A program made the position numbers and the translations under genes. Positions 3,059-59,744 of a stretch of DNA of 64,000 nt are shown here, one piece after another. The notes beneath the pieces were generated by a model, which was given only the letters and a program-made list of their open reading frames with translations, was not told the origin of the DNA and ran no database searches. Origin of the DNA: Planctomycetota bacterium (GTDB lineage: Bacteria; Planctomycetota; UBA1135; UBA2386); the NCBI GenBank assembly GCA_965228735.1, contig OZ245838.1, forward strand, positions 832,001 to 896,000, given 5' to 3'. The stretch's first letter is position 1, and every line of letters starts with the position of its first letter.

Positions 3059-5965
3059 CTACTGCGTGAACAGGTTGAGGTGCTGGTTGCTCGTCACGAT
3101 CTCGAAGTTGGCGTCGATCGTCACGACCTGGCTGTACCACACGAGGCCGGTGAGCGGGACGCCGGGCGGAGCCGTGATGGGCAGCGAGTAGTTGCCGCTG
3201 CCGTTCGTGTAGTCGAACAGGCTGATCGGGTTGCCACCGACGAGGATCGGCGGGACGCCCGGGAAGAGCGTCGGGCCGCCGTCGAGGCCGATCACCCAGA
3301 TGAACGGCTGGCTCGCGGGCGTCGTCACGTCGAGCGTGAGGTTGCTGCCCTGCTGAGCCATCGGCGGATCGAGGTGCAGTCGGGTCGACAACGGCGCGGC
3401 GCTCGTCGACGTGAGCACTTCGATGTCGTCGATGCCCCAGCCGCCGCCCTGCACGGTTGCGTCACTGTCGAGCCGGAACTCGAGCACGAGGTTGGGGCTG
3501 TTGTCGACGCTCGGCGGCAGTGACTGTTCCCAGGTCGTCCAGCCCGTGTCCTGGAGCGGTTGCTGCGGGCTGAAGTAGACCGGCACGCCGTTGACCCAGA
3601 TCGACAGGCGATCGAGGAAGCCGACGTCGACGCTCGCCCAGCGCTTGAAGCGCAGCCGCAGGTTGCTGTAGGCCGAGCAGTCGATCCCCGGGGACCGCAG
3701 GTACGAACTCGTGGACGGCGGGTAAGCGCCGGCCAGGTTGTTGCCCGCGCACGACGTGCCGCTCGCGGCACCCGCGGGGTCCTGCCACCACGAGCCGGCC
3801 GCCCCGGTCGGCGTGCCGATCTGCCAGTCGTCGACTCCCACCGTGGCGCCGTGCGTCCAGCCCGGTCCGCCCGCTTCGAAGTCCTCCGTCCAGATCGTCT
3901 CGTCGGCGTACGTCGCGTACTCGAACTCGCCGGTCACCGGCAGGCGATACGTCGTCGAGCCGCTGTGGACGGCCTCGAAGTGGTACGTGAGCGTCTGCGA
4001 CGACGGCATGCCCGGCAGCAGCGCGCGCCAGCCGTCCGGGGTCCCGCTCGGGATCATCACCTGCTGTCGCGGCTGACCGTCGTCGTAGTGCACGCGCACT
4101 TCGGTGAAGGAGCCGAAGCTCGGCACCGCGCGGCACTCGACGAGGCGCGGCGTGAGCGGCTGGTCAGTGCGCTCGAGCGGCGCATCGTGCGCGAGGAACC
4201 CCGGCAGAATCGGCGGATACGGCAGGCTGTGCGAGTTGCACGCGGCCGCGAGCTGCGCGTGGTGCGGCGTGCCGTTGACGATATTGCCGTCGTCGTCGTC
4301 GGCGATGAAGACCTGCGTGACGGCGGCCGGTTGGTTGATCGCGTTGGCGACGACGGACGCGAGCACCGTGTTGTTGCTGATGTCGATCGCCTGCGCGGTG
4401 CCGAACGCGCTCCGCAGGTTCTGCCGGTACTTCCAGGCGAAGCCCATCCAGGTCTGGCCCTGACGGTGCACGCCGCCGCCGGCCGGGTACTGGCGGCTGT
4501 TGTTGCCGGTCCGGAGCCCGCCGCCGCTGCTGTAGAAGCCGTGGCCGATCGTCGGGTCGTCGAGCAGATAAATGCTGCAGATGTCACCCCAGCCTTCGCT
4601 GAGGCCGTCGACCTGCGAGATGCCGCCATAGCGATCGTCGAGGCCGTGACCCCACTCGTGCGCGATCACCGACGCGCTCGCCGTGTTGTTGCAGCTGCCC
4701 TGCGCGCGGTAGAAGTTGATCGAGTTGCCGCTGTAGTAGGCGTTGCATGATGCCTGGATGTTGACCGTCGGTTGCACGCGGCTCGCGAGATCGAGCTCCG
4801 GCGTGTTGCCGAGCACGCTGCGCAGCAGCTCGTTGATGCGATCGACCCAGTAGAAGCACGTCGTGTGCGCGAGTTCGTTCTGCGTGCTGTTCACCGCGCC
4901 GAACTGCAGGGTCTGCGGCACACCCGGCTGCAGCGTCGTCGTCACGGTGAGCGCGTTGCTGCCGATGATCCGGTTGCAGTGGATGCCGTCGAGCTCCAGC
5001 GTCGCGAGCACGGGACTCGTGAGGTCGACCGTGAACTGCCCGTTCTGATCGGTGACGAAATCACCGATCCCGGCGAGCGCGATCTCGAGGCCGACGAGCG
5101 GCTCATTGGTCGGCGTCGTGGCGGGGGAGAACTGGGTGTGGACCCAGCCCATCACGGTGAACGTGGTGGGCACCGGTGCGGCGGTAGCTGCGCTGGCCGA
5201 GGGAGTCGGCCGATGGATCGAACACCCGAACCCGCACTCGTGCTTGTCGGAGCGCCAGGCCAGCACGCCGCCGGTGTGCGCGTCGACGTAGACGCGGCCG
5301 ATCGGGCCGTCGCCCTGCCGATCGACCGCGGCGATCGGGATCTCCCACGCGAGGGCCGGAGCGACCGGTGTCGCGCTGCCGTGATCGGCCCAGATCACGA
5401 GGCGACTCTTCTTCGCCGTGCCCGGTTGCGGCACCGCCGTGGGGGTCACGCCGCGGTCCTGCCACGCGATCGCCGTGGCGGCCTCGACCGTGATGCGCGG
5501 CTTGCCGTCGAAGGTCTTCGGGATCGGCACCGCCGTGCTGCCGAGGAAGCTGATGCGCCCGCGCATGTGAACCCGGACGTCGGCGCGGCCGCCGATCACG
5601 GGCAGGCCCGCGTGCGACTGCGCATACGTGAACGACCAGGTCCGGCCCATGCGCGCGCCCGTCCGCTCGACGAACGTGCTGGTGCCGAGCCCGAGCAGCT
5701 CGGACCAGCGATGCAGCTCGACGTCCGCGTGCCGCCTGGCCTCGGTCAGCGAGTTCGCGCGCCAGTCGACGAGGTCGTAGCCGCGACCGAAGACCTCGAG
5801 CGGTGTGCCCGTCGCGCCGTGCCAGCGCACGAGCCAGGGGCCCGGAACGGCGCTCTGGAATCGGGCCCAGGCCGCCGCGGTCGCGGGCGTTGGTTCCTGG
5901 GCCGGCAGGAGCGGACCGAGCAGAGCGGTGGCGGCGAGAGCACGAATGGCGAGGGAAGCGGACAT
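3059..5965 (-). CDS. Secreted M4/M36-like zinc metallopeptidase with propeptide, beta-sandwich module and C-terminal domain
   Basis: Signal peptide; FTP/PepSY-like propeptide (VYVDAHTGGV); CNAYY, HEWGH and GLSEGWGD zinc motifs; later DFEAG...GWGIDDIEV module. Confidence 0.85.
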   Translation of the reverse strand: MSASLAIRALAATALLGPLLPAQEPTPATAAAWARFQSAVPGPWLVRWHGATGTPLEVFGRGYDLVDWRANSLTEARRHADVELHRWSELLGLGTSTFVERTGARMGRTWSFTYAQSHAGLPVIGGRADVRVHMRGRISFLGSTAVPIPKTFDGKPRITVEAATAIAWQDRGVTPTAVPQPGTAKKSRLVIWADHGSATPVAPALAWEIPIAAVDRQGDGPIGRVYVDAHTGGVLAWRSDKHECGFGCSIHRPTPSASAATAAPVPTTFTVMGWVHTQFSPATTPTNEPLVGLEIALAGIGDFVTDQNGQFTVDLTSPVLATLELDGIHCNRIIGSNALTVTTTLQPGVPQTLQFGAVNSTQNELAHTTCFYWVDRINELLRSVLGNTPELDLASRVQPTVNIQASCNAYYSGNSINFYRAQGSCNNTASASVIAHEWGHGLDDRYGGISQVDGLSEGWGDICSIYLLDDPTIGHGFYSSGGGLRTGNNSRQYPAGGGVHRQGQTWMGFAWKYRQNLRSAFGTAQAIDISNNTVLASVVANAINQPAAVTQVFIADDDDGNIVNGTPHHAQLAAACNSHSLPYPPILPGFLAHDAPLERTDQPLTPRLVECRAVPSFGSFTEVRVHYDDGQPRQQVMIPSGTPDGWRALLPGMPSSQTLTYHFEAVHSGSTTYRLPVTGEFEYATYADETIWTEDFEAGGPGWTHGATVGVDDWQIGTPTGAAGSWWQDPAGAASGTSCAGNNLAGAYPPSTSSYLRSPGIDCSAYSNLRLRFKRWASVDVGFLDRLSIWVNGVPVYFSPQQPLQDTGWTTWEQSLPPSVDNSPNLVLEFRLDSDATVQGGGWGIDDIEVLTSTSAAPLSTRLHLDPPMAQQGSNLTLDVTTPASQPFIWVIGLDGGPTLFPGVPPILVGGNPISLFDYTNGSGNYSLPITAPPGVPLTGLVWYSQVVTIDANFEIVTSNQHLNLFTQ

Positions 5966-6213
5966 GGGCCGCGCCGATGATGCGTTCTGCCCGGGCCGTT
6001 GTCACCTCCCTGGCGCCACCGAGGCGGGGCTCCGCGCCAGAAGCGACCATGCCGAGGCGGGGTCCCGAGATGCTGTCCACCGTGTTCTCCGCGTGGCGGC
6101 GACCGTCGGCGACTCCCGGCCGATCAGCGCCGCCAGATCGGCGCGCGGGCTCGCGCGGCCCGGCGTCGGCTTGCGATTCGGCTGCCCGTGCGTAGATCGG
6201 GTGCTGAAGAGCC

Positions 6214-7548
6214 ATGACGTGGTCCGCACACTCGCTTCTCTCGACGCTGCCGCAGGGTGCCGGCCTGTTCAAACCGAGCGAGCAGGCGCAGGCGCCGCAG
6301 GAGCCCGAAGGGTTCTGGTTGTGGCTCTACGAGCACCAGCTCACGGCGCAGTGGATCGGGCTCGGTGGGCTCGTCGCGGCGGCCGTGCTCACCTGGTTCG
6401 TCACGTGGCTGCTGCTGCTGCCGCTGCTCGGCCGCCTCATCAAGCGGAGCAAGTTCACGTGGGATGACGCGTTCCTCGACGCGCGCTTCTTCCGCTGGCT
6501 CGTGAAGCTGTTCCCGGCGCTCGTGATGTTCTCGGGCGTCACGGTGGTGCGCGATCACTTCTATCTCGCCGACACCGCGTACGGCGCGATCCGCAACCTC
6601 GCGGCGGCCGTGATGATGATCTGCGCCGTGCTCGCGATGTGCGGCCTGCTCAACGCGCTGCAGTCGATCTACGCGGCCAGGGCCGGCAGCGCGCGGCGGC
6701 CGATCAAGGGCTACGTCGAGCTCGTCAAGATCTTCCTCGTCGTCGTCGGCGGCCTCGTCGCGATCGCGCTGCTGCTCGGCCGTGACGTCGGTGGGCTGTT
6801 GACGGGCGTCGGCGCGATGACCGCGGTGCTGATGCTGATCTTCAAGGACACGATCCTCTCCGCGGTCGCGTCCGTGCAGCTCGCGAACCAGAACATGCTG
6901 CGCATCGGTGACTGGATCGAGATGCCGAGCGTCGGCGCGGACGGCGACGTGATCGACATCGCGCTGCACACGATCAAGGTGCAGAACTTCGACAAGACGA
7001 TCTCGACGATCCCGACCTATCGCCTCGTCAGCGACACGTTCAAGAACTGGCGCGGCATGAGCGAGAGCGGCGGGCGGCGCATCAAGCGCAGCGTCGTGAT
7101 CGACGTCTCGACGATCCGCTTCCTGACCGACGAGGAGGTCGAGAGCTTCGGTCGGTTCGGGTTGCTGAAGAGCTACATCCTCGACAAGAAGCGGCGGCTG
7201 AAGAAGGAGAACGAGGGCAAGGATGCGGCGTCCTGTGACCTCGATCGGCTGCGGCTCACCAATGTCGGCACCTTCCGCGCCTACATGGTGCGCTACCTGC
7301 GCAGCCTGCCGAAGGTCCACAGCGGCATGACGTTCCTCGTGCGACAGCTGCCGCCGTCCGAGAACGGGTTGCCGATCGAGATGTACCTGTTCACCAACAC
7401 GACGGCGTGGGGCGAGTACGAGGACGTGCAGGCCGACATCTTCGACCACCTGCTCGCAGCGCTGCCCGAGTTCGGGCTGCGCGCGTTCCAGCGACCGACC
7501 GGGGCCGACCTCGCCGGGTTCGTGCGGGCGGAGCAGCAGGCCCCCTGA
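6214..7548 (+). CDS. Mechanosensitive ion channel, MscS family (YbdG/MscM-like)
   Basis: Several TM helices; IGDWIEMP, ADGDVIDI, KVQNFDKTI, FKNWRGM...GGRRIKRS, QADIFDH. Confidence 0.93.
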   Translation: MTWSAHSLLSTLPQGAGLFKPSEQAQAPQEPEGFWLWLYEHQLTAQWIGLGGLVAAAVLTWFVTWLLLLPLLGRLIKRSKFTWDDAFLDARFFRWLVKLFPALVMFSGVTVVRDHFYLADTAYGAIRNLAAAVMMICAVLAMCGLLNALQSIYAARAGSARRPIKGYVELVKIFLVVVGGLVAIALLLGRDVGGLLTGVGAMTAVLMLIFKDTILSAVASVQLANQNMLRIGDWIEMPSVGADGDVIDIALHTIKVQNFDKTISTIPTYRLVSDTFKNWRGMSESGGRRIKRSVVIDVSTIRFLTDEEVESFGRFGLLKSYILDKKRRLKKENEGKDAASCDLDRLRLTNVGTFRAYMVRYLRSLPKVHSGMTFLVRQLPPSENGLPIEMYLFTNTTAWGEYEDVQADIFDHLLAALPEFGLRAFQRPTGADLAGFVRAEQQAP

Positions 7549-7564
7549 ACTCTCGATCGGGGCG

Positions 7565-7918
7565 TCAGCCGCCGAAGTGCTCGGCGTAGGCGTCGGCGTG
7601 GAACCCGACGTGCCACGTCTTGCCGGTGCGGATCGCGGGCGCGCGCAGGTTGCCCGATGGACCGATCACCACCGAGCGCAGCTCGTCGATGTCGAACTCC
7701 GACTTCTTCGGCTGGAACACCAGCGTCTTCTTGCCCTTCGCGACGACGATCTTGCTCGCGTCACCGAACAGCTCCTCGACCGTGTCGGGGCCGAAGCGCT
7801 CCTTGGCTGCGTTGACCGTCTCCCGGACGGTCGTGCCGGTGCCCTCGAGGGCGGCGTCGGCACGCTTGCAGCTCGTTCAACCCTTGCGGTGGTAGTACCA
7901 GTCGATCTTCTTGGCCAT
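7565..7918 (-). CDS. ArsC/Spx-like thioredoxin-fold selenoprotein (UxxC); in-frame TGA at 7877-7879
   Basis: Manual translation gives MAKKIDWYYHRKG-U-TSCKRADAALE...GPSGNLRAPAIRTGKTWHVGFHADAYAEHFGG*. TGA is codon 14, at the first Cys position of a CxxC; the frame then stays open for 103 codons. Confidence 0.88.
7832..7864 (-). promoter_or_regulatory. Candidate bacterial SECIS hairpin of the ArsC-like gene
   Basis: mRNA CGUGCCG-acgcc-GCCC-UCGA-GGGC-ac-CGGCACG begins 12 nt after the UGA. Confidence 0.5.
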
Positions 7919-8062
7919 GGTATCGATGGATAGCGCGGCGCGTTCGGCTGGTCCACGGTCGATCCTGCGCGTTCGGAGTCGCCGGTCCCGGGGCTCCCAC
8001 CCCTCGCCCGTCGGCGGTACCCTCTCTACGGGGGAGCTTCGACTCGCAACTCAGGAACTACC

Positions 8063-11000
8063 ATGCCCGCCGTCCGCCTCATCGTCACATCGATCCTGGC
8101 CGGAGGTGCGCTCGCACCGCTCACGGCCCAGAATCTGATCGCCAATCTGCAGCCGGCCGGGGGGAGTGCGTCCGGCGGGTTCTTCGAGGGGTTCGCCGTC
8201 GCGGGCAACGGGGCGTTCGCGGTCTTCAGCGCCAACGGGCGTCACGGCCGTGAGCTCTGGGTGACGGACGGCACGCAGGCCGGCAGCGACCTGCTGGTCG
8301 ACCTCGAGCCCGGCGCGAGCGGGTCGTTTCCCGGTGAGTTCGCCGTGCTCGGGAACGAGGTGCTGTTCGCGGCGACCGTGCCAGGGCTCGGTCGTGAGCT
8401 CTGGATCACGGACGGCACGGTTCACGGCACCCGCCTGCTGCGTGACCTCGACCCCGGCTCCGGATCGAGTTCGCCGGACGAGCTCACGACGTTCGGAGGC
8501 TTCGTGTACTTTGCGGCCAACGTTCCCGGGGCCGGGATCGAGTTGTGCCGAACGGATGGCACGACGGCTGGCACCGGGATCTTCGCCGACCTGACGGTCG
8601 GCAGTTCGTCGCCGCGTGAGTTCGCGGTCGTGGGGAACGAGCTCTACTTCACCGCGATAATCGCAGGGGCGGGGCGCGAGCTGTGTCGCACGGACGGCAC
8701 CGCCGCCAACACGGGCCTCGCGGTCGACGTCGTGCCGGGGTCCACGGGTTCGACGCCGACCGACATCGCGCCGTTCGGGAGCGGGCTGCTGTTCAGCGCG
8801 TTCGCCTCCGCGACCGGCCGGGAGGCCTACTTCTCCGACGGCACGGCGGCAGGCACCGTGTTGCTCGCCGACCTGAATCCCGGGCAGAACTCCAACCCGA
8901 TCGAGTTCACGGACCTCGGCGGGCTCGCCGTGTTTCGCGCGACGGGGCCGGCCGGCCGTGAGCTCTACGTCACGGACGGGACGCCGGCGAACACCGCCCT
9001 GTTGCGCGATATCCGGGCCGGGATCAGCAGCGGGGTCACCACCGAGGAGTTCGTCCAGTATCAGGGGCGGGCCTACTTCAGCGCCGACGACGGCGCGATC
9101 GGTCAGGAGTTGTGGAGCACCGACGGCACGCCGGCCGGAACCGGCCCGGTTCTCGATCTGCGGCCCGGCAGTCCGGACTCCGCCCCGGCCGGGTTCGTCG
9201 AGATTGGCGGCGAGCTGTGGTTCGTCGCCACCGATGCCGGCGGTGATCGGGAGATCTGGAAGACGGACGGCACGGCCACCGGAACGGTTCAGGTCATCGA
9301 TCTCGAGGCGTCGTTCTCCGCCCAGCCGGAGGATCTCGTGCCGTTCGGTGGCGGCGCCGTTCTGTGTTCGGCCATCGCGCCGGGCACCGGACGCGAACCG
9401 TTTCACGTCGACGGGACCGTGCCCGGGAGCTATCTGCTCGTCGACACCAGGCCCGCCGCCGGCGACTCGAACCCGGAGGGTTGGACGGAGTTCGCGGGAG
9501 GCGCGTTCTTCGCCGCCAGCGTCACCGGGGTCGGCACGGAGGGATACGTGACGGACGGCACCTCGGCCGGTACGGCCGTCGTCGACCTGCTGCCGGGTGG
9601 CGGCAGCGGTAGGCCCGAACACGCCGTGGCGTTCGGGGGGCGCATCGTGTTCGAAGGCGACGACGGACCGAGCGGTCGTGAGCTGTTCTCAACGGATGGG
9701 ACGCTGGGCGGAACCATCCAGCTCAGTGATGTTCCGGGCGGCAACGGAGTGCAGCCGCGGTTCATGGTCGCAACGTCGACCCATGTGTTCTATCGCGGCA
9801 GCGAGGCGCAGTATGGCAGCGAGTTGCACGTTTCCGACGGGACCCCGGCGGGCACCGGTCGGTTGGCGGATCTGAACCCGGGCTCGCTGTCGTCGAATCC
9901 GAGCGACTTCGCCGTGGCCGGTGATCGCGCGTTCTTCGTCGCCAACGACGGGGTCAGCGGGAGCGAACTCTTCTCCAGCGATGGTTCGCTCGCCGGGACC
10001 GTCTTGCACGACATTCGCCCCGGCACCGTGGGCTCGTCCCCGGACGAGCTCGTCGATCTCCAGGGCAAACTCGTGTTCGTCGCGAACGATGGTTCGCAGG
10101 GTCTCGAACTCTGGTGCTCGGACGGCTCGGTGGCCGGGACCAATCCGATTGCGGATCTCGTGCCCGGTATCGGTAGTTCCTCTCCCCGCGACCTCACAGT
10201 TGCGGACACCCGAGTGTTCTTCACCGCCGCCATCCCGGGGGCCGGTCGGGAACTCTGTGTCACCGATGGTACGGCTGCCGGCACGGGACTCGTCGTGGAC
10301 CTCGTGCCCGGCGGTGTTGGCTCCGTGATTCGTGACCTCCGCGGCGTCGGATCGCGTGCGTTCTTCCTCTACGACGATGGTTCGGGGACGGGCGCCGAAC
10401 TCTGGACCAGTGACGGCACCGCGGCCGGAACGCATCTCGTGCGCGACATCGGCCCGGGCGCGATCGATGGTCCGATCCCGGGTTCGTTGACGTCGATCCT
10501 CGACGGGCAACTGCTGTTGTTCGCGGCGAGCGACGTCGCCAGCGGCATGCAGTTGTGGATCAGCAACGGCACGACTGGGGGAACGCTGCCAGTGACATCT
10601 TTCGGTGTCGGGGGGCGCGGTGCCGTCTCACTCGGACCGTTCCTCGATACCGGCAGCCGCGTGTTCTTCGCCGCCGATGACGGGCTCCAGGGCAACGAGC
10701 CGTGGGTCTTCGACCTCAACGGTTCGGGCGCGGCGTTCGTGCTCAACTACGGCCATGGCTGCTCGACCACTCCCACGACGGTGCCCCGGATCGGCTCGAC
10801 CGGCGGCCTCCCCTCGCCGGGGACCACGACGTTCGCCGTGACCCTCACGAACGCACCCGCGACGACCGCGGCGTTCCCGCTCGTGGCGTTCACGCCGGGA
10901 TCGTTCCTGCTCGGCTCGGGCTGTCGCCAACTCATCGGAGTGCCCTACATCGCGCTGCCGCTCCGCTTCACGGACCCGGTCGGTGACGCCCAGATCCCGA

Positions 11001-11131
11001 TCGGTTTGCCGAACGACCCGAGCTACATCGGGGTCAACCTGTTCTGTCAGTGGGGCGTCATCGCGACGCCGGGACGCTTGCTCGGCGCATTCGATCTCAG
11101 CGACGGGCTGCAGGCCCAGATCGGGAACTGA
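8063..11131 (+). CDS. Secreted ELWxxDGT repeat protein (about 17-18 repeats) with C-terminal domain
   Basis: Signal peptide; repeated ELWVTDGT/ELCRTDGT/ELFSTDGT units about 47 aa apart; C-terminal YGHGC...Q...SDGL segment. Confidence 0.92.
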   Translation: MPAVRLIVTSILAGGALAPLTAQNLIANLQPAGGSASGGFFEGFAVAGNGAFAVFSANGRHGRELWVTDGTQAGSDLLVDLEPGASGSFPGEFAVLGNEVLFAATVPGLGRELWITDGTVHGTRLLRDLDPGSGSSSPDELTTFGGFVYFAANVPGAGIELCRTDGTTAGTGIFADLTVGSSSPREFAVVGNELYFTAIIAGAGRELCRTDGTAANTGLAVDVVPGSTGSTPTDIAPFGSGLLFSAFASATGREAYFSDGTAAGTVLLADLNPGQNSNPIEFTDLGGLAVFRATGPAGRELYVTDGTPANTALLRDIRAGISSGVTTEEFVQYQGRAYFSADDGAIGQELWSTDGTPAGTGPVLDLRPGSPDSAPAGFVEIGGELWFVATDAGGDREIWKTDGTATGTVQVIDLEASFSAQPEDLVPFGGGAVLCSAIAPGTGREPFHVDGTVPGSYLLVDTRPAAGDSNPEGWTEFAGGAFFAASVTGVGTEGYVTDGTSAGTAVVDLLPGGGSGRPEHAVAFGGRIVFEGDDGPSGRELFSTDGTLGGTIQLSDVPGGNGVQPRFMVATSTHVFYRGSEAQYGSELHVSDGTPAGTGRLADLNPGSLSSNPSDFAVAGDRAFFVANDGVSGSELFSSDGSLAGTVLHDIRPGTVGSSPDELVDLQGKLVFVANDGSQGLELWCSDGSVAGTNPIADLVPGIGSSSPRDLTVADTRVFFTAAIPGAGRELCVTDGTAAGTGLVVDLVPGGVGSVIRDLRGVGSRAFFLYDDGSGTGAELWTSDGTAAGTHLVRDIGPGAIDGPIPGSLTSILDGQLLLFAASDVASGMQLWISNGTTGGTLPVTSFGVGGRGAVSLGPFLDTGSRVFFAADDGLQGNEPWVFDLNGSGAAFVLNYGHGCSTTPTTVPRIGSTGGLPSPGTTTFAVTLTNAPATTAAFPLVAFTPGSFLLGSGCRQLIGVPYIALPLRFTDPVGDAQIPIGLPNDPSYIGVNLFCQWGVIATPGRLLGAFDLSDGLQAQIGN

Positions 11132-11237
11132 CGCGGAACGTGCCGGCGCGCGTCGGCCGGTCCCGAAAACGCGAGAATTCCGGTCGGTTCGGAGTCTTGC
11201 CTGCGTAGCGCGGCGGGATCGTCGGGTCCCACCAAGC

Positions 11238-12374
11238 ATGAAGCGTTTCCTCCTCGCGGTCGGCATGCTGCCTTGCCTCCTGTCGGTCCTGGCAGCGCAG
11301 TCCTACGTCGTCGACGTCAACAGCGGGCCCAATACCGCGTTCACCGCGCTCGACACGGCAGTTGCGGCGGCGCCCAACGGCGCGACGTTGCTCGTGCGGC
11401 CGGGGAGCTACCAGGCTTTCCACATTTCGGGGAAAGGTCTCACCATTCTCGGTGAGCCCGGCGCGGTCATCGATGGCAGTGCGCCGGGGGCGCTCTGCAA
11501 GGTCAGCTCGCTGCACCCGGGCCAGCGGTTCGCCATGCGCGGCGTCGCGCTCGGGAACGTGCTGGGGCCCGTCGCGGTCGATCTGCACAGCAACGTCGGC
11601 CCGGTGATCCTCGACTTTCCACCGATGGCGCCGGTCGCGGCGCGCTGCGTCGTCAATCAGAGCCACCAGGTGCACGTTCGTGGGCTGCGGATCGACTTCC
11701 CGCACCTGCCCGCGCTCGCGGTCGGGAACGGCGTCTACAGCTTCGTCGACTGTTCGTTCGTGAGTGAGCGCGCGGCCGTCGAGATCGGCGATGCCTACGT
11801 GCAGCTGACGGACTGCTACCTGTCCGGCTACCAGCAGCCGACGCTCGGCCCGGCGCACGCCGTGGTCAGCCTGCAGATCAACTCGCGCGTCGAGATCCGC
11901 GGCGGGCAAATCGACGGCTGGACGGCCCTCGGGGTGCCGTATGCGTTCGCGGGGATCGGGTTCGCGCAGCTCGATGCGGCGACCCAGGTCACGAACGTGA
12001 CGGGCATGACCAACGGGTTCGTTACCCTGACCGTGGCCGGCGCCGCGCGGTGCCGGGCGAGCACCGCGCCGATTCCGAACGGCGCGACGCCGGCGTTCGC
12101 GACGGCGCGCGCGACCGGGCCCGCGGGCAGCGTGGTCGCGCTCGTGGTCGGTCACCCGGGGTTGCCGCAGATCGTCGCCGGGGTGCAGTATCCAACCTGG
12201 CTCGCGCCCCAGACCGGGTTGCTGCATGCGATCGGTGCTGGATCGGTCACGGGCGGCTATGCGGTGCCGAGCGCCACGTGGCTGCGCGGCGTCGATGTCG
12301 CGTGGCAGGGGCTGAGCTTCGACGCGGCGAACGGGCTGCAGTTCAGCAACGCGGCGACCTACGTCCACAACTGA
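11238..12374 (+). CDS. Secreted protein, probable parallel beta-helix, with C-terminal domain
   Basis: ATG 11238 gives a signal peptide (MKRFLLAV...AAQ); YVVD...AVAAAPNGATLLVRPGSY resembles a beta-helix N-cap. Confidence 0.7.
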   Translation: MKRFLLAVGMLPCLLSVLAAQSYVVDVNSGPNTAFTALDTAVAAAPNGATLLVRPGSYQAFHISGKGLTILGEPGAVIDGSAPGALCKVSSLHPGQRFAMRGVALGNVLGPVAVDLHSNVGPVILDFPPMAPVAARCVVNQSHQVHVRGLRIDFPHLPALAVGNGVYSFVDCSFVSERAAVEIGDAYVQLTDCYLSGYQQPTLGPAHAVVSLQINSRVEIRGGQIDGWTALGVPYAFAGIGFAQLDAATQVTNVTGMTNGFVTLTVAGAARCRASTAPIPNGATPAFATARATGPAGSVVALVVGHPGLPQIVAGVQYPTWLAPQTGLLHAIGAGSVTGGYAVPSATWLRGVDVAWQGLSFDAANGLQFSNAATYVHN

Positions 12375-15736: not shown

Positions 15737-15750
15737 TCTGGCGGCTGCAC

Positions 15751-30717: not shown

Positions 30718-32499
30718 ATGATTCCCGCCGCGCGCGCCGCCAGCTTCGTCCTGCCGTTCTCATGCGTCACGCCGGCCGCCGGGTTGATGACCGCCGCTCT
30801 GCTGCTGACTCTCGCCGCGGCGCTGCCGGAACGCGTCGTCGCGCAGACCCCGACCGTGAACGTATCGGGTGAGGCGATGCGGCTCGCCAGCTGGTCGGTC
30901 ACGCCGACGGGCGGCAGCAACTACGACGTCACGTTGCGGATGGCGGACGACAACAACAACGGCAGCCTGCCGAACAGCTTCCGCCGCTGGTGGCACTGCG
31001 AGATCGCGCAGATCGCACCGACCGGTGTGACCCTGACCGTCACGATCACGAACGCGGGCTACACCGACATCATCCTGCCGACGTGGGCGCGGTCGACGGA
31101 CGGCGGTCAGACGTTCACGCCCTACACGCGCATGCCGACGAGCGCCGTGCCGACGCGGCCGACGTCGACGTCGCATCGCTTCACGATCACGACGCCAGCC
31201 GGCGTCGATACGATCCGGATCGCGAAGTTCTTTCCCTACACCGTCGCGCGCAAGAACGCCTATCTCGCGAGCCTCGCGACCCACCCGCACGTGCGGTCGA
31301 TCACGACGATCGGCAACTCGGTGCTCGGTCGCCCGATCGAGATGGTCGAGATCACGGATGCGAGCGTGCCGGACTCGGGCAAGGAGCGCGTCTGGATCCA
31401 CACCGCGGTGCACCCGGCGGAGACGACGGCCTTCTTCCAGATGGAGGGCCTGATCGACTGGCTCGGTTCCAGCGATCCGGATGCGGAGGCGCTGCTCGAC
31501 CGCGTGATCTTCGACATCGTGCCGATGGCCAACCCCGACGGCGTCTGGCTCGGCAACTACCGGACGAACGCCAACTCGGTCAATCTCGAGAACGAGTGGA
31601 CCGCGCCCTACAACAGCCCGCAGCCCGAGATCGTCGCGATGCGGACGCAGATCGAGGGGTTCATGGGCACGCCGGCCGCGCCGGGCAGCAACCCGATCCG
31701 CGTCGTGCTCAACCTGCACGCGACGCACAACGTCGGGCTGCCGTTCCATTTCCGGCACACGAGCAACCCCAACTGGAGCGCTGGCGGCAACAACTCGGGC
31801 GTGATCCCGGCGGTGCACGCGCTCGAGAACGACTGGATCCAGGCCTACATGAATAGCAGCGCGTTCGTGGCGATGGGAACGACGCAGAACAGCTCGGCCG
31901 GCGCGCCGTCCCGGCCGTTCGTGGAGTCGATGATGCACGACCGTTGGTCGGCGAATCCGCAGTGGACCGGTTCGCCGGCCTTCGAGGACGAGGTGATGGC
32001 GATCACGTTCGAGGGCACGTATCGGTTCGGCCCGACGCCGGGCGTTTGGGGCACCGAAGCGGATTGGTATCAGACCGGCGTCGACATGGGGCGCGCGTTC
32101 GGCGACTACTTCGACTTCGGTCCGCTCGCGATCGGGACCTCGTACGGCAGCACCTGCATGACCGTGCTGATGAACGGGGCGCTGACGCCGTTGCCGAACG
32201 GCGATCACCGGGTCGACCTCGCGTTCGGCGGCGCGACCCCGAACGGCATCGCGTTCGTCGCCTACGGCTTCCTGCCGGCCACGACGCCGCTGCCCGCACC
32301 GTGGCAGGGCTGCCTGTCGCTCACGAGTGTGGATGCGGCCGTGCTCGTGCCCGTGTCGCCGTTCGGGGTGGGGCTGCACGACTACGTGCTGCCGTACTTC
32401 CCGGGGTTCGCGCTGCACAACCAGGTGCTGGCGCTCGGCCCGGTCGGGCCCTCGATCACGATCGATACGAGCAACGGCTTCCAGGTGCGCAACCTCTGA
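30718..32499 (+). CDS. Secreted M14-family zinc carboxypeptidase with C-terminal domain
   Basis: HPAE, NPDG, LNLH zinc-site motifs; N-terminal beta domain ending FPYT. Start 30718 or 30787. Confidence 0.85.
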   Translation: MIPAARAASFVLPFSCVTPAAGLMTAALLLTLAAALPERVVAQTPTVNVSGEAMRLASWSVTPTGGSNYDVTLRMADDNNNGSLPNSFRRWWHCEIAQIAPTGVTLTVTITNAGYTDIILPTWARSTDGGQTFTPYTRMPTSAVPTRPTSTSHRFTITTPAGVDTIRIAKFFPYTVARKNAYLASLATHPHVRSITTIGNSVLGRPIEMVEITDASVPDSGKERVWIHTAVHPAETTAFFQMEGLIDWLGSSDPDAEALLDRVIFDIVPMANPDGVWLGNYRTNANSVNLENEWTAPYNSPQPEIVAMRTQIEGFMGTPAAPGSNPIRVVLNLHATHNVGLPFHFRHTSNPNWSAGGNNSGVIPAVHALENDWIQAYMNSSAFVAMGTTQNSSAGAPSRPFVESMMHDRWSANPQWTGSPAFEDEVMAITFEGTYRFGPTPGVWGTEADWYQTGVDMGRAFGDYFDFGPLAIGTSYGSTCMTVLMNGALTPLPNGDHRVDLAFGGATPNGIAFVAYGFLPATTPLPAPWQGCLSLTSVDAAVLVPVSPFGVGLHDYVLPYFPGFALHNQVLALGPVGPSITIDTSNGFQVRNL

Positions 32500-32599: not shown

Positions 32600-33034
32600 A
32601 TGAAAGCCATCCACACCCTGTCGTCCCTCCTCCTCGGCCTCGCCCTCGCCGCCCCCGCGGCGGCGCAGACCTACCAGCTCACCGAAGTCGGGCCCACCTG
32701 CGGTGCCGATCTGCGCGGTCAGGTCGTCTCGTCGCCGGCTGGCAGCGGCGTCCGCCTGGGGCTGCGCAGCGTGGTCGACAACGGCCTCGCGGTCCTCGCG
32801 ATCGGCAGCCGGCGACCGACGCCGGTGCAGCTGCCGGGCGGCCAGTGCGACCTCTACGTCGACCCGCGCGCCACGCAGCTCCAGCGCACGGGGCCCCGCG
32901 GGTACGCGCGCTTCGCGTTCCGCATTCCGCCGGTCGTGCCGATCCGCATCGCGTTCCAGGCCGTCGTGCTGGATGTCCGGCCGACCGGGCTGCGCGCGGC
33001 GTCGAGTGACGTCATCATCCTGCAGGGTCAGTAG
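32600..33034 (+). CDS. Small secreted protein made only of the shared C-terminal-type domain
   Basis: GGGGA RBS; signal peptide ending AAAQ; mature VGPTCG...C.LYVD...FQAVVLD...SSD. Confidence 0.75.
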   Translation: MKAIHTLSSLLLGLALAAPAAAQTYQLTEVGPTCGADLRGQVVSSPAGSGVRLGLRSVVDNGLAVLAIGSRRPTPVQLPGGQCDLYVDPRATQLQRTGPRGYARFAFRIPPVVPIRIAFQAVVLDVRPTGLRAASSDVIILQGQ

Positions 33035-33197: not shown

Positions 33198-36188
33198 ATG
33201 ACATCCTGGTGGTTGCGCGCGTCGTCCGGTCTCCTGGCTCTCGGCTTCGGCCATGTCGGTCTGCTCGCCCAGGACGAAGAAGACGACTACGCGTTTCTGC
33301 TCGCGAGTGCGCAGAAGAAGCTGCTCGAGGGTGAGCTGTCGTCCGCGGAGGCGCGGTTCGACGAGATCCTGCTCGCGCTCGAAGAGGAGCCGGAGGAATA
33401 CCAGCCGCCGCCGGCGATCGTGAACGCGGCGCGGCTCGGGTTCGCGACGATCGAAGAACGTCGCGGCAACTACGAGCGCACGCTGCGCGACCTCGAGCGG
33501 TTGCCCGACGCGTTCCGGGTGACGCGCGAACCGCGGCTGCTGCAGGCGCGCACGCTCGCCCGGGTCGGGCGTTACGATGACGCGATCGCGGCGCTCGAGC
33601 CGCTCGCGGCCGGCGACACGGTCGACTCCGAGGTCCGGCACGAACTCGGCGCGATGCACTGGTGCAAGGGCGAACGAGCCCGCGCGCGCGAGCTGTGGAC
33701 GGCGAACACCACGGCGGACCGGCCGGCGGACGCGCGCCAGCTGACGTTCCTCGGCCGGTCGTACCATCGGCTCGGCGGGCGCGAGAACATCGAGCTCGCG
33801 AGCCGCGCGTTCGTCGAGAGCATGAAGCTCGAGAGGGCCGCGGAGAAGGCCGGCGGGCCACCGGCGCGGCCGGAAGCACGCACCAGCTACGGCATCCTCA
33901 AGTTCGAGGCGTATGGCGAGGCCGCGGGGTTCCCGAGCGGCGAGAAGGACCTCAAGAAGGTGCTCGAGGAGCACGGCGACTACGAGCCGGCGTTGCTCGC
34001 GATGTATCGCCTGCGGCGCTCCAACCAGATGCTCGATCCGAGCATCACCGAGCAGTACCTGCAGCGGGCGTTGCGGCAGAACGGCAAGTGTGTCGAGGGG
34101 CTCGTGCTGCGCGGCAGCAACATCTTCGACGATCGTCGCTTCGAGGCGGCCAAGGAGGTGTTCGACGCCGCGCTCGCGATCAACCCGAACCACAAGGAGG
34201 CGCTGGCGCATCGCGCGGCGGTCGCGTTCCTGCTCGCCGAGATGGACGACTACGCGAGGTATCGCGAACGCGCGCTCGTTGGCGACGAGGGGCAACCCGA
34301 CGTCGATCGGATCCTCGCCGATCATCTGGTCGCGCTGTATCGCTTCGCGGATGCGCTGCCGTTCTACGAGCAGGCGCTGGCCGTCGATCCGGACAACGTC
34401 GCGGCGCTGCAGGGTTCGGCCAAGGCGTTGATCTACTGCGGTGACGGCGCCGAGGCGCGCAACCGCCTCGAGTATGCCAAGGAGATCGAGCGCGGCCTCG
34501 TCGACCCGTGGCGCAACAACGCGATCGCGGCGCAGGAGCTGCTCGAGGAGGAGTACGTCACCGTGCGCAGCAAGGACGGCCAGTTCGAGCTGCGCCTGCA
34601 CCGCGATGACTCCGAGCTGCTCGCGGCCTACATGATGCCGCTCTACCTCGAGGCTGCGGAGGAGCTCGGGCGGAAGTACGGCGTGCGACCGGACGACACC
34701 GTGACGGTCGAGGTGTTCCATACGTGGGACGACTTCTCGGTCCGGACGACCGGCTTCCGCGGGTTCACGGCGCTCGGGGCGTGCTTCGGGCCGTTCATCA
34801 CGCTCGTGAGCCCGGGCGACACGGACGTGCGCCGGCAGGACTTCATGTGGGAGGCCACGGTCTGGCACGAGTTCTCGCACGTGCTGACGCTCGCCCTGAG
34901 CAAGCACCGGGTACCGCGTTGGCTCACCGAGGGGTTTGCCGTCTACGAGGAGAAGGTCCGCGACCGCACCTGGGAACGCGGCATGGATCGCGAGCTGTTC
35001 GACGCGTTCCACAACGAGGACATCCCGCCGGTCGGGTTGCTGAACCGGCTGTTCCGCGGGCCGCGCATCCTGTTCGGCTACTACCAGGGCGGGCTGATCG
35101 TGGAGCTGATCTCGAAGCGCTGGGGCTTCGACAAGGCCGTCGACATGTGCCGCGCGTTCGGCGACGACCTCGGCCTCGAGGCGGTGTGCCAGCGCGCTCT
35201 CGGCATGAGTTCGCGCGAGCTCGACCGGGCGCTGCTCGAGTTCGTCGAGCAGAAGAAGATCCGCGGGATGAAGCTCGTGCCGCGCTACGACGACGGCGCG
35301 ATCGATCGCCTGCTCGTGCGAGCGGCGCGCGACAAGTCGGACTTCGATGCGCGCATCGGGCTCGCCTGGGCGTTCGTGCAGCGCAGCAACCCCGTCGACG
35401 CGGGGCGCTGGCTCGCCGAGGTGCTGCGCGAGGATCCGAATCATGCCGGCGCGCTGCTCGTGCGGGCGCAGATGCTGTGGCAGCGCAAGGAGGTCGAGGG
35501 CGCCCTCGACTGCTGGCGCCGCGGCTTCGCGGGCGGCGCGGACGACTTCGATTCGCGCATCGCCTACGGGCGGGCGCTCGTGGCGCAGAACGACCTGAGC
35601 GGCGCCGAGGATCAGTGGCAGCGCGCGAAGGCGTGCTGGCCGAAGTGCACCGAGCAGGAGAACGCGCCGGAGCTGCTGCTCGCCCGGCTCTACCGCGACC
35701 GCAACGACCGGACGCGCGCGCAGATGGAGATGAAGACCTACTGCAACCGCACGGCGCGCGCGTTCACCCCGCGGCGCACGCTCGCGACGTTCGAGCGCGA
35801 CTCGGGCAACCGCGCGCAGGAGATCAAGTATCTCGTGGAGTGCAATCGGATCGATCCGTTCGACCGGTCGCTCCACCTCGAACTCGCAGAGGCCTACGAG
35901 GCGATCGACAAGCGGGCGCTCGCGGCGAAGGAGTACGAGATGGCGGCCGCGGTGCCGCCGCAGCTCGATCGGCAATACTTGCGCCCGGACCGGACGGCGC
36001 CCGCATCCAACGCGCCCGCGGAGCTCGCCGAGCGCGGCAGCTTGTGGTTGCGTGCGGCACAGCTGCGCTACTCCATCGGCGATCGCGAGCGGGCGCGCGC
36101 GCTGTTGCAACGGATTCGGAAGGAGGCGGCCGGTTCGGATGCGGCGGCGACGGCAATGGAATTGGAACGCGAGTGGGCTGGCGGTTAA
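33198..36188 (+). CDS. TPR-repeat protein with peptidase MA-like metallopeptidase domain
   Basis: Signal peptide; many TPRs; WHEFSH and PRWLTEG zinc motifs. Confidence 0.85.
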   Translation: MTSWWLRASSGLLALGFGHVGLLAQDEEDDYAFLLASAQKKLLEGELSSAEARFDEILLALEEEPEEYQPPPAIVNAARLGFATIEERRGNYERTLRDLERLPDAFRVTREPRLLQARTLARVGRYDDAIAALEPLAAGDTVDSEVRHELGAMHWCKGERARARELWTANTTADRPADARQLTFLGRSYHRLGGRENIELASRAFVESMKLERAAEKAGGPPARPEARTSYGILKFEAYGEAAGFPSGEKDLKKVLEEHGDYEPALLAMYRLRRSNQMLDPSITEQYLQRALRQNGKCVEGLVLRGSNIFDDRRFEAAKEVFDAALAINPNHKEALAHRAAVAFLLAEMDDYARYRERALVGDEGQPDVDRILADHLVALYRFADALPFYEQALAVDPDNVAALQGSAKALIYCGDGAEARNRLEYAKEIERGLVDPWRNNAIAAQELLEEEYVTVRSKDGQFELRLHRDDSELLAAYMMPLYLEAAEELGRKYGVRPDDTVTVEVFHTWDDFSVRTTGFRGFTALGACFGPFITLVSPGDTDVRRQDFMWEATVWHEFSHVLTLALSKHRVPRWLTEGFAVYEEKVRDRTWERGMDRELFDAFHNEDIPPVGLLNRLFRGPRILFGYYQGGLIVELISKRWGFDKAVDMCRAFGDDLGLEAVCQRALGMSSRELDRALLEFVEQKKIRGMKLVPRYDDGAIDRLLVRAARDKSDFDARIGLAWAFVQRSNPVDAGRWLAEVLREDPNHAGALLVRAQMLWQRKEVEGALDCWRRGFAGGADDFDSRIAYGRALVAQNDLSGAEDQWQRAKACWPKCTEQENAPELLLARLYRDRNDRTRAQMEMKTYCNRTARAFTPRRTLATFERDSGNRAQEIKYLVECNRIDPFDRSLHLELAEAYEAIDKRALAAKEYEMAAAVPPQLDRQYLRPDRTAPASNAPAELAERGSLWLRAAQLRYSIGDRERARALLQRIRKEAAGSDAAATAMELEREWAGG

Positions 36189-50643: not shown

Positions 50644-50798
50644 GGCGTTGCCATCGCGCGTCCGGGGCGGGCCCGGGCTCGACTACGGAATGCTCCGGAT
50701 GCGCGGATCCGGCCAGTAGCGACCGTCGCGGGTCGGAATCGCGCGCGGCGCTCAGGCTGCCCCGGTCGACGGTCGATAGGTGCGCCGAGGGAATATCA

Positions 50799-51239
50799 AT
50801 GAACGCCAAGGTCGTTTTGCAGCTTACCGGGCCGATGGACCACCTCCGGCTGGTCTGGCAGACGGGTGAGACCCTGCTCGAGCCCGTGACGTTCGAAGAG
50901 GACAGCGAGGGCAACCGCTACAACGTGCTGCTCGCGCTGCAGGAGATGGTCACGAACGTGCTCCGGCACGGCTATGACCTCGACGAGACCCTGCCGATCG
51001 AGGTCGAGTTCGAGGTGTCGTCGCAGCAGCTCGCGATCGAGCTGCGGGACCGCGGCGCCGAGTTCAACCCGCTCGAGTTCGACACGGACGCGGCGGCGGC
51101 CGACGAGATGCCGACCAGCGCCGGCGGCTTCGGCATCCACATCGCCAAGATGGTGATGGACGAGGTCGAGTACGAGCGCCGCGGCGACTGGAACTGCCTG
51201 CGGCTCACCAAGGACGTTCTCTCGCAGGCCAAGGTCTGA
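50799..51239 (+). CDS. RsbW-like anti-sigma factor / Ser kinase (HATPase_c_2)
   Basis: EMVTNVLRHG, DRGAEFNP, GGFGIHI. Confidence 0.88.
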   Translation: MNAKVVLQLTGPMDHLRLVWQTGETLLEPVTFEEDSEGNRYNVLLALQEMVTNVLRHGYDLDETLPIEVEFEVSSQQLAIELRDRGAEFNPLEFDTDAAAADEMPTSAGGFGIHIAKMVMDEVEYERRGDWNCLRLTKDVLSQAKV

Positions 51240-51247
51240 GGCCCGCC

Positions 51248-52816: not shown

Positions 52817-53187
52817 TGGCAGCTCAAAAGATCCTGGTCGTCGACGATGAACCGTTCATCTGTCGGTCGCTGTCGTTCGTCCTGCGCAAGGGCAACTACG
52901 AGGTGATCGAGGCGCGCGACGGCGAAGAGGCGATCGCGGCCATCCGCGATCACCGCCCGGACCTCGTCTTCCTCGACGTCATGATGCCGAAGATCAACGG
53001 CTTCGAGGTCACGGAGCAGGTTCGTGCCGACCCCGAGCTCGACAGTGTCAAGATCATCCTGCTCACGGCGAAGGGGCAGGAGAGCGACCGCGAGGTCGGC
53101 AAGACCGCGGGCGCGAACGACTACATGACGAAGCCGTTCAGCCCGACCAAGATCCTCGAACGCGCCCGCGAAGTCCTCGGCGGCTGA
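52816..53187 (+). CDS. Single-domain response regulator
   Basis: TGATG overlap; VVDDE, LDVMMP, LTAK, KPFS. Confidence 0.93.
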   Translation: MAAQKILVVDDEPFICRSLSFVLRKGNYEVIEARDGEEAIAAIRDHRPDLVFLDVMMPKINGFEVTEQVRADPELDSVKIILLTAKGQESDREVGKTAGANDYMTKPFSPTKILERAREVLGG

Positions 53188-53342
53188 GCCGGCAACCCGA
53201 CGAGCGGAGCCATCCGGCTTACGGAACCGGGTTCGGGCGTACGGAACCGGGTTCGAGCCGGCACCCTGGCCGTGACCCGCTCCCGCCGTCGCCGCGGTCT
53301 GCAGTTTGGACCGGGTACCGTACGCCGGGTAGGTTGCTGCGC

Positions 53343-55415: not shown

Positions 55416-57517
<2,102 letters not shown>

Positions 57518-57539
57518 CGCGTCCTGCCCGCGGGCAACG

Positions 57540-57566
57540 CGCCGATCACCCGAGCGGTGATCGGCG
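57540..57566. terminator. Hairpin between convergent genes
   Basis: 11-bp inverted repeat CGCCGATCACC-cgagc-GGTGATCGGCG; no U tract. Confidence 0.55.
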
Positions 57567-57572
57567 AGTGCT

Positions 57573-59744
57573 CTACGACCCGAGCACGATCTCGAGCGCG
57601 TCGGCCACGACGGCGTAGTTGCCGAGCGAGCCCTGCGGGTCGAGAGCCGCCGCGGTCGCCATGATCGACAGGCCCGCGAACGCGGGGTCGGCGGGCAGCG
57701 GCAGCGGCCAGGTCGCGACGCCGCCGGCATCGCTCACGGTGCCTCGCACGACCGGACTGGCGACCCACAGCGAGCAGCCGCCGCCGAGTGGCTGCGCGCT
57801 GCGCTGAAAGCCGAGGCCGAGCGCGGCGTAGGCGCCGGGTCGGATCGCCACGAGCCGGAACGCGAACGTCGGGTTGGGCACGGTGGGCTGGCCCGTCGCG
57901 ACGATCCGGGGGGAGCCGTTCGGGCTCGGGCACGCGCTGCCGTAGCGTTCCTTATCGGCGCCGACGAAGGTCGCTGGCCGCACGAGCACGACCCAGTCCT
58001 CGGTCGGCATCGCGGGTGGGCTGCCGAGGCTGCGCGCACCGCCGCCCTGGATCTGCGGTATCGAGCCGGCCTGAAGTCCACCGCCCGATCGCGGATCGTA
58101 GAACCGCACGTCGAACGCGCCCGCTTCCGCCGTGAGGTCGAGCGTGGTGGAGCCACCGTTCTCGAGATACACGACGAACACCCGATCGCCCGCGAGGCAG
58201 TGGCCGTTGCCGACGAGCCCGTCGGCGTTCTGCATGTTCCAGAACGGAACGCGGTTGGCGGCGAAGAACTCCAGTGCGTAGCGGCACTGGTCCCACCAGA
58301 GGTCGCGACTGCGAAAGTCCTCACACGTCAGATCGGAGTGCGCGTGGGCGTAGCCGAAGTAGCACTCGATGCCGGCCCCGCCGGCCATCAGGTGGCCCCA
58401 CAGCACGTCGGCCCGCGCGCCGTCGTGTGCCGGATCCACGCCGTCGGGCACGATGCCGTTCTGGGCGTTGCCTTGCTCGTCGTTGGCGACGACCCAGGGC
58501 CGGTTCGCCGCCGCCGACTGCTGCCGCCAGCTCAGAGTGTCCGCGAACACGTTGTTCGGCTGGCTCTGCAGGCTTGCGCCGGTCAGCTCCGACCCGATCC
58601 CGAGCAGTGGGGTGTAGACCGCGGTCTTCTGACTGGGATAGGTGTGGACGACGATGTTGTGGCCGTACGGATCGATCGCCCGGAAGTGCTGTGCGAAGGC
58701 GACGCGTTGCGCCGTGGTGTTGCTGTTCTCCTCGCCGAGGTTCCAGTTGAGCGCGAGATGGTGCCCGAAACGCGAGACCAGCTCGCGGTAGTACAGCTTG
58801 CGCTCCGGTCCGAGATTGCCGCCATCGAGGTCCTGGTCGTTCTCCGTCTCCTGGGTCTTGAAGTGCAGGTAGAGGCCGAGGCGATCGGCGTGCGCGAAGA
58901 CGGTCTCCCACTGGTCAAGCTTGCTGCAGTCGAACCGCAGCGGGTCGTTCGGGTCGACGTAGGGGAAGACGTTCTTGTCGTCGCCGTTGTGGCTGTAGGT
59001 CAGGAACGACACGGCGTTGAGACCTTCCGAGGCGAGGTAGTTGAGGGCGCCGATCAGCTCCGTGCCCCTGCCGCCCTGCCACGACGGATCGCCCGGCTGC
59101 CAGTCCACTGCGTGTGGTGACCAGCTCTTGCGTCGATTGCCGACGTTCGGCGTGTTGTCGATATCCTCGTAGGCCAGCAGGTTCTCGGGCGAGTCGGCGC
59201 CGGCCTTGAGGAACCAGCTGCCGTCCGCGAACTGCAGATGATGGCGACCGACGTAGCGCAGCCGACCCTTGCCCCGGTGGTCGCGGCCGGATTTGTCGGT
59301 TGCCGTGACCTCGAACGACCCCGTCACGCCGTCGAATGGTGCGAGGGCTGCACCGGCCGTCGGCGACAGATCGACCGCGACGTCCGGGCCGGTGCGGAAC
59401 GAGACGGTGAACGTCCACGTGCCGACGTGGTCCGGTGCGAACCACGCGCGCCAGACGTCGCCGCCCGTCGCCGAGGTCTCCGCTGCCTGACCGTCCGCCG
59501 CGAAGTGACCGGGAACTTCGTAGGTCGTGTTCGAAGCCGCGTGCACGAACGTGACCTGCATGCGGTGGTCGAGGAACGGGTTGGGCGTTGCGCCCTCGGT
59601 GGCGGCCGGGCCCTCGAGCAGGACGGCGACGCGATGCCAGCGGCGCAGACCGTCGGGAGCGTCGACGGTCACCTGCTGGGCCGTCGCAACGGTGGCAGTC
59701 ACCGTCGAGAGTGCGAGAACGAGCGCGGTCGTGCGAGGGAGCAT
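57573..59744 (-). CDS. Secreted DUF5060-like / glycoside-hydrolase-like protein with collagen-binding-like and C-terminal domains
   Basis: NPFLD, VPGHFAADG, WRAWFAPD, WNLGEE, ANDEQG, VRFYDPRSG..DWV; signal peptide from ATG 59744. Confidence 0.78.
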   Translation of the reverse strand: MLPRTTALVLALSTVTATVATAQQVTVDAPDGLRRWHRVAVLLEGPAATEGATPNPFLDHRMQVTFVHAASNTTYEVPGHFAADGQAAETSATGGDVWRAWFAPDHVGTWTFTVSFRTGPDVAVDLSPTAGAALAPFDGVTGSFEVTATDKSGRDHRGKGRLRYVGRHHLQFADGSWFLKAGADSPENLLAYEDIDNTPNVGNRRKSWSPHAVDWQPGDPSWQGGRGTELIGALNYLASEGLNAVSFLTYSHNGDDKNVFPYVDPNDPLRFDCSKLDQWETVFAHADRLGLYLHFKTQETENDQDLDGGNLGPERKLYYRELVSRFGHHLALNWNLGEENSNTTAQRVAFAQHFRAIDPYGHNIVVHTYPSQKTAVYTPLLGIGSELTGASLQSQPNNVFADTLSWRQQSAAANRPWVVANDEQGNAQNGIVPDGVDPAHDGARADVLWGHLMAGGAGIECYFGYAHAHSDLTCEDFRSRDLWWDQCRYALEFFAANRVPFWNMQNADGLVGNGHCLAGDRVFVVYLENGGSTTLDLTAEAGAFDVRFYDPRSGGGLQAGSIPQIQGGGARSLGSPPAMPTEDWVVLVRPATFVGADKERYGSACPSPNGSPRIVATGQPTVPNPTFAFRLVAIRPGAYAALGLGFQRSAQPLGGGCSLWVASPVVRGTVSDAGGVATWPLPLPADPAFAGLSIMATAAALDPQGSLGNYAVVADALEIVLGS

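Follow-up and report, generated by a model that had tools for sequence, protein, structure and literature searches.

A single-copy immunoglobulin-like domain on exported proteins of a planctomycete, a candidate handle for the outer cell surface

Introduction

Lipid anchoring and surface display meet in Klebsiella pullulanase, a lipoprotein of the signal peptidase II type that is displayed by way of a type II secretion system (T2SS). Among C-terminal tails of the sortase type, PEP-CTERM, GlyGly-CTERM and MYXO-CTERM combine a short motif, a transmembrane helix and a basic cluster right at the chain end, according to the available parts of bioRxiv 10.1101/2023.06.07.544157 and PMC11980579. Features of the C-terminal domain (CTD) in type IX secretion systems (T9SS) are given in an excerpt of PMC9127263, and a cohesin-dockerin 'planctosome' has been proposed for other planctomycetes in the portion of PMC6461901 drawn on here. 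This report concerns a domain, here called the tag, that is borne by six proteins encoded in one 64,000-nucleotide stretch of a Planctomycetota genome (the window, G000:C1:832001-896000) and by hundreds of others elsewhere in that genome. The source genome, G000, is a Planctomycetota metagenome-assembled genome, a single contig of 7.19 Mb with 69% GC, and is 93% complete. Its DnaK is 79-87% identical to those of a set of records that are almost all Planctomycetota metagenome-assembled genomes, one bearing the label CL500-15, which may point to the OM190 group; one record at 85% is labelled Thermoanaerobaculia. A sequence-only reading of the window had proposed that unrelated secreted proteins share this tail as part of a very large family that acts as a secretion signal or surface-docking module, with unknown machinery.

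Results

One domain family on unrelated exported proteins

Genes of G000 were taken from our own gene caller (5302 genes), and signal peptides were assigned throughout by a rough rule of our own. The six window copies, which score E 3e-8 to 9e-25 on called genes, are as follows.

3059..5965, minus strand: signal-peptide protein of 968 residues with an HEWGH zinc-peptidase motif; domain 3086-3412, E 4e-9, no Cys pair
8063..11131, plus strand: ELWxxDGT repeat protein of 1022 residues (TIGR04534, E 5e-210); domain 10745-11107, E 1e-20
11238..12374, plus strand: signal-peptide protein of 378 residues, no recognised family; domain 12030-12353, a diverged copy, E 3e-8
30718..32499, plus strand: M14 carboxypeptidase; domain 32140-32478, E 3e-12
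32600..33034, plus strand: stand-alone form of 144 residues, signal peptide plus domain; domain 32681-33010, E 9e-15
57573..59744, minus strand: DUF5060 protein of 723 residues; domain 57603-57947, E 9e-25, the copy used for fold prediction

All six open reading frames (ORFs) and the peptides quoted from them lie where the sequence-only reading had placed them, the most likely starts being 11238 for the third gene and 59744 for the DUF5060 gene. The six tails belong to one family, as had been supposed: an iterated hidden Markov model (HMM) begun from the ELWxxDGT tail or the DUF5060 tail alone recovers all six, with final E values from 1e-6 to 7e-24 and no match among 71,675 reversed ORFs in any round. 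Pairwise phmmer comparisons are weak, and the only mutual match is that between the ELWxxDGT and DUF5060 tails (E 9e-5). The cores are unrelated, the five window cargoes falling into five different cargo clusters, and the Cys pair is present in four of the six copies, both as described earlier. The proposed core pattern does not extend to all six, with Thr at the Gln position in the DUF5060 copy and no Gly after the Pro motif in the stand-alone form. Two cargo labels lost ground: 'M4' for the first gene is weak (Pfam M36 E 0.0015, M4 E 0.01, both below cut-off), and 'beta-helix' for the third finds no support in Pfam or NCBIfam. The M14 carboxypeptidase keeps its tag in eight of eight close orthologues. 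The stand-alone gene belongs to an Arg-rich subfamily that is also stand-alone in G001, G002, G003, G005 and G009, with a second paralogue in G000 at 499874-500221.

The genome mean is 3.3 copies per 64 kb, and the window, with six, has about double that density. A profile run to convergence on G000 identifies the domain in at least 342 of the 5302 called genes, as a single copy in every one (342 of 342) and with no decoys; with an extra pass confined to C-terminal 170-mers, the combined set comes to 366 genes. The expected very large family on unrelated exported proteins is real, uncatalogued and restricted by lineage, with 342 to 366 genes; 306 cargo parts sort into 115 clusters. The domain is about 125 residues long and its members are about 26% identical, with a Pro and a Gln near the end conserved in more than 90%. 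Tagged genes cluster in tandem, 143 of the 366 being adjacent where 49 are expected.

C-terminal placement holds for 315 of 342 copies, after which the chain runs on for no more than 20 residues, and fails for 27: 13 are N-terminal (two with doubtful starts), 13 are sub-terminal with about 40 residues after them, and one is internal. Because the domain is not strictly C-terminal, it does not agree with a signal that is cleaved from the C-terminus, as in T9SS or PEP-CTERM sorting. Signal peptides are commoner on tagged proteins by our rough rule, which fires on 271 of 342 tagged proteins and 1950 of the 4960 others; a site of the form x-x-[AGS]-Q is found in 260 of 342 tagged proteins, compared with 266 of 2531 proteins without a signal. 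Where a signal peptide is predicted, Gln is the residue at +1 for 118 of 210 tagged proteins (window examples 8063, 11238 and 32600) and for 237 of 818 untagged ones; it is frequent in the untagged secretome too. A Gln at this place recalls the pyroglutamate Q-rule of Bacteroidota. No twin-arginine (Tat) motif was found in the tagged proteins of G000. A transmembrane helix is predicted in only 7 of 342 proteins, and the chains finish in ends such as VGN and LGN.

Predicted fold, database standing and distribution

The two Cys covary, with 173 members having both, 34 neither and 13 a single one (7 and 6), and this covariation in sequence points to a disulfide. AlphaFold2, given 86 paralogues, returns an all-beta model with a pLDDT of 96, by which the domain is predicted to be a disulfide-bonded immunoglobulin (Ig)-like sandwich. 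A predicted loop next to the second Cys is rich in Pro and Leu; in the members that were parsed, 104 of 342, it has 5.7 residues that are bulky and hydrophobic and 0.8 that are charged. Tags on cargo proteins are acidic, with a median net charge of -3.

A wide structure search with the model gave generic matches to unrelated Ig domains, the best at Z 8.9, and the 50 structure matches listed include neither a T9SS CTD nor a cohesin or dockerin chain. Foldseek found nothing in the PDB that reached E 0.001; its weak matches to the lipid-binding ML domains of NPC2 and MD-1 (TM 0.31-0.39) were not counted. A characterised family was sought in Pfam, NCBIfam and PDB sequences with alignment A1, and only chance matches of single members were seen. 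Matches in the ESM Atlas are confined to unnamed Planctomycetota clusters or clusters named after the cargo. A library of 50%-identity clusters returned 31,788 matches, and 147 of the best 150 are C-terminal. No description of the domain was found in the literature, supplements and subscription papers being outside the scope of that search.

The domain is present in 20 of 21 relatives, mostly with more than 80 matches each. The one relative without it, G015, is a metagenome-assembled genome of 240 contigs in which partial mis-binning is possible. Across a phylum sample of 301 Planctomycetota genomes from 92 families, 61 genomes in 16 families are tag-rich, five have one or two copies and 235 have none; presence is all-or-none by family. 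G179, a distant carrier outside the order of G000, shows 26 matches in the 2.31 Mb covered, 23 of them C-terminal.

Composition of the tagged proteins

Tagged cargo parts have a median K+R+E content of 0.077 (n=191), compared with 0.175 for untagged signal-peptide proteins (n=433) and 0.183 for cytoplasmic proteins. In this low charge content the cargoes resemble pilins and flagellin. Below a content of 0.11, G000 has 333 tagged proteins (tag counted in) and 105 untagged proteins without helices, so that the tag marks about three quarters of the proteins with exterior-type composition (333 of 438). The 105 untagged proteins include pilins, one flagellin-like and one hook-like protein and barrels, all recognised by eye, and 21 lipobox proteins; the same set also holds a small number of cytoplasmic enzymes and many proteins whose tags have probably diverged. 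We infer that the low-charge class lies outside the outer membrane, and the tag very probably marks proteins bound for the cell exterior.

Exchange with lipid anchors

Within the low-charge class, lipobox matches occur in 2 of 333 tagged proteins and 21 of 105 untagged ones (odds ratio 41). The internal copy of the tag, at G000 1245429-1248326, lies where a tagged propeller is joined to a passenger of a lipoprotein family; the propeller is 41% identical to a paralogue that ends in the tag, and the passenger is 56% identical to a lipoprotein. The passenger family has 24 loci. At five of these (in G000, G001, G002, G003 and G005) the tag stands immediately upstream and a lipobox is not matched; 12 of the remaining 19 match a lipobox pattern, one of them at a second Cys, and none has both lipobox and tag. 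The internal position is conserved in five genomes. Because the tagged front parts are of two different kinds, more than one fusion event is suggested.

Four large lipoproteins of G000 consist of an Ig-like stalk and a Gly-rich passenger (G000:C1:2418873-2422367, 2695762-2699196, 5166222-5169569 and 2655148-2660505). Three of the four end in an LRLPFRF motif, and the passenger family has matches in 19 of 21 relatives.

Exchange with other tails

The 120 best homologues of the window DUF5060 enzyme include 12 that end in the tag and 21 that carry PF18962, and none carries both; several further homologues have ends that look, by eye, like dockerins or tails of other kinds, and many are tailless. 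In tagless G015, a member of the same order, all five FG-GAP proteins end in dockerin-like repeats, three of them above the Pfam cut-off. G015 was rejected as a control for tag loss, the dockerin-like tails there indicating a swap. Dockerin-rich genomes (35) and tag-rich genomes (61) share no member (P 0.0005 by genome, kin not being independent).

Tag and MAM domains alternate on an S8 protease. The window copy of this protease is untagged.

59893..63555, minus strand: S8 protease with three MAM domains at its end

The tag is present on the paralogue encoded at G000 5678284, which shares 55% identity with it over about 600 residues. Other MAM-like endings in place of the tag on exported proteins were seen at G000 2954019, 5689984, 5970101 and 7038004.

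G189 and G219, of family f61, have one copy each. In each, the tag is embedded in a protein resembling cytochrome c peroxidase, and after it comes a basic C-terminal domain, unrelated to the tag, which ends at least one other protein per genome; with only two matches per genome, this domain on top of the tag is a lead. It is about 300 residues long, ends in W-x-R, has a shorter form in L289, occurs on unrelated exported proteins and has no Pfam match. It is a candidate second lineage tail. The genes are these.

L282:517-1437, minus strand: basic-domain gene
L283:535-1461, minus strand: basic-domain gene
L288:1501-2430, minus strand: basic-domain gene
L289:1450-3336, minus strand: basic-domain gene

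Search for machinery

A dedicated translocon or processing enzyme was not found; the exosortase, rhombosortase and myxosortase families were not searched for. PorV has no match in G000, where the control was detected. The SprA model TIGR04189 matched neither G000 nor the controls, and no SprA-like barrel was recognised among 11 proteins of at least 1500 residues, judged from their ends and, for three, in full. One protein with a C25 domain, the peptidase class to which PorU belongs, occurs in G000, untagged, and the covered part of G179 has no match. Cohesin PF00963 has no match in G000 with the control detected, although diverged cohesin folds could escape, and dockerin PF00404 has none there either. 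A 2045-residue candidate proved to be an Rhs protein. The Rhs proteins at G000:C1:3787232-3793369 and 4739637-4745270 are 76% identical over 1650 residues, and the first adjoins transposase-like genes.

Seven secretins are encoded in G000. Genes for GspD-E-F (2199409-2204764) and for pseudopilins (799416-802244) are homologous to the genes of G179 locus L253, for which GspD, E, F and G are the best NCBIfam models, GspF alone scoring above cut-off. Export of tagged proteins through the T2SS is likely.

Comparison of G000 with the 2.31 Mb of G179, in a fast BLAST mode that diverged barrels may escape, gave 982 reciprocal matches, 161 of them envelope-type, and 88 G179 proteins were scanned in Pfam. 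Clusters common to the two genomes contain amidohydrolase-like, Ton/Exb, secretin/pilin and peptidase genes; in this non-exhaustive comparison, made partly by eye, no tag-specific translocon, barrel or sortase stood out.

Several loci met in these searches are recorded in their own right. Nine consecutive signal-peptide amidohydrolase-like genes (G000:C1:6016936-6030814 and L201:3774-15846) are syntenic between G000 and G179 and possibly encode a multi-subunit periplasmic complex. A pilin-like cluster (G000:C1:1397583-1414788 and L174), partly conserved in G179, includes a minor pilin-like protein of 1735 residues and an exported protein of 495 residues without a Pfam match. The GspD orthologue of G015 (G015:C20:18610-20778) has one internal TAG, meaning a broken gene, an assembly error or recoding.

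Neighbouring genes in the window

Between the stand-alone gene and dnaA, at window 33198-36188 on the plus strand, lies a TPR protein of 996 residues with an HEFSH zinc-peptidase motif. The order M14, stand-alone, TPR is preserved in G001 and G002 only.

Discussion

We put at about even the chance that the tag is a single-copy folded handle which retains exported proteins on the outer cell surface and replaces a lipid anchor there. A Sec-type signal peptide would take the tagged protein across the inner membrane, with folding and disulfide formation following in the periplasm. The T2SS, the one general exporter of proteins across the outer membrane that our searches brought up, would then carry the protein out, and the tag would stay uncleaved. 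Retention might come about if the hydrophobic Pro/Leu-rich loop enters the outer leaflet or engages a partner at the surface. As for the sorting or docking tail first envisaged, the data lean to surface attachment, and no dedicated machinery came to light in the searches made.

Several points weigh against retention by a surface handle. The case for it is genomic throughout, and an export signal would account just as well for the exchange with T9SS CTDs and for there being a single copy in each protein; surface-binding modules already known, S-layer homology (SLH) domains for example, are usually repeated. Two tagged proteins do match the lipobox rule, and lipoproteins may be untagged for another reason, namely that their Ig stalk, rather than the lipid anchor, makes the tag needless as an export signal. 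The exclusion of dockerins is weak at the family level (none shared between 16 and 15 of 92 families, P 0.04, kin not being independent). Dockerin-rich planctomycetes mostly lack detectable cohesin (matches in two of five genomes), and for that reason the dockerin-like tails there may not be anchors either. The route is also less than firm: GspD, GspE and GspG scores fall just below the NCBIfam cut-offs, and a GspD orthologue also occurs in tagless G015 (GspD alone checked), so that possession of the T2SS is not tied to the tag.

The tag could instead be purely an export signal, a folded address for the T2SS or an unrecognised exporter, with the cargo then released or otherwise held. Such a signal would be expected to look much as the tag does, present once in each of 342 proteins, occupying the slot of the T9SS CTD on DUF5060 enzymes, marking 333 of 438 proteins of exterior composition and, in f61, standing before a basic C-terminal domain as though a local address had been appended. 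It accords poorly with the replacement of the lipobox-plus-stalk part of a lipoprotein family and with the alternation between tag and dockerin-like tails, and neither a tag-specific translocon among the proteins common with G179 nor an SprA-like barrel among 11 large proteins was seen; we regard it as rather unlikely. An improbable alternative makes the tag a dockerin analogue or coat subunit that binds a scaffold, the Arg-rich stand-alone paralogue or itself, and so builds a coat of enzymes. Exclusion with dockerin-rich genomes, the planctosome precedent (the same portion of PMC6461901) and the pairing of acidic cargo tags (median net -3) with an Arg-rich stand-alone subfamily all speak for it; against it, cohesin is unmatched in G000 with its control detected, stand-alone orthologues appear only in family f1 with the query used, and the large Ig-stalk lipoproteins were not found in G017 or the covered part of G179, both tag carriers.

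It is very improbable that the tag is a passive accessory Ig module, with, for example, a glycan-binding, adhesive or stabilising part and no role in sorting, spread by shuffling. Its fold, generic enough to match unrelated Ig domains at Z up to 8.9, its exchange for MAM domains on the S8 protease and its tandem clustering (143 of 366 against 49) would suit such a module, but there are never two copies in a protein, presence is all-or-none by family, the cargoes form 115 unrelated clusters, and tag and lipobox nearly exclude one another.

A broader proposal, which we hold to be doubtful, is that each Planctomycetota lineage uses one genome-wide outer-surface handle, interchangeable with the others (the sandwich tag, dockerin-like repeats or the basic sandwich of f61), and that the handle here is a portable lipid-anchor substitute, independent of its position in the protein, that doubles as a T2SS recognition signal. 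If so, it would be the first defined modular targeting domain for the T2SS. If the T2SS reads the domain, the old question of how this system recognises folded substrates could be tested with one transplantable module; if the tag anchors by itself, it would be a new surface-display handle. The Pfam and NCBIfam copies searched lack this domain, which is carried by about 7% of G000 genes and by most exterior-type proteins there, and a profile of it would predict the surface proteome of a clade of Planctomycetota rich in uncultured members.

Comparison with known systems

Like the PEP-CTERM, GlyGly-CTERM and MYXO-CTERM tails, the tag is a lineage-wide mark on many exported proteins; unlike them it is globular, with a helix in 7 of 342 proteins only. 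With dockerin type I (PF00404) it has in common that it is a terminal module on the same cargo types, the two alternating by lineage, whereas the tag is a predicted all-beta sandwich without calcium-binding repeats, and G000 shows no match to the partner family PF00963.

The T9SS type A CTD of Bacteroidota (TIGR04183 / PF18962) is likewise a single Ig-like domain shared by Sec-exported proteins of many unrelated kinds, and takes the same slot on DUF5060 enzymes. The tag does not match either of these models (0 of 86 members at E 0.1; HHalign probability 0.3%), is about 125 residues long with a Cys pair, occurs in N-terminal and internal positions as well, and is found in a genome in which PorV is unmatched. 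Compared with the lipid anchor of lipoproteins, the tag differs in being a folded domain that follows a cleavable signal peptide and lacks a lipobox; it stands in for the lipid anchor in one passenger family, and the two hardly ever occur together.

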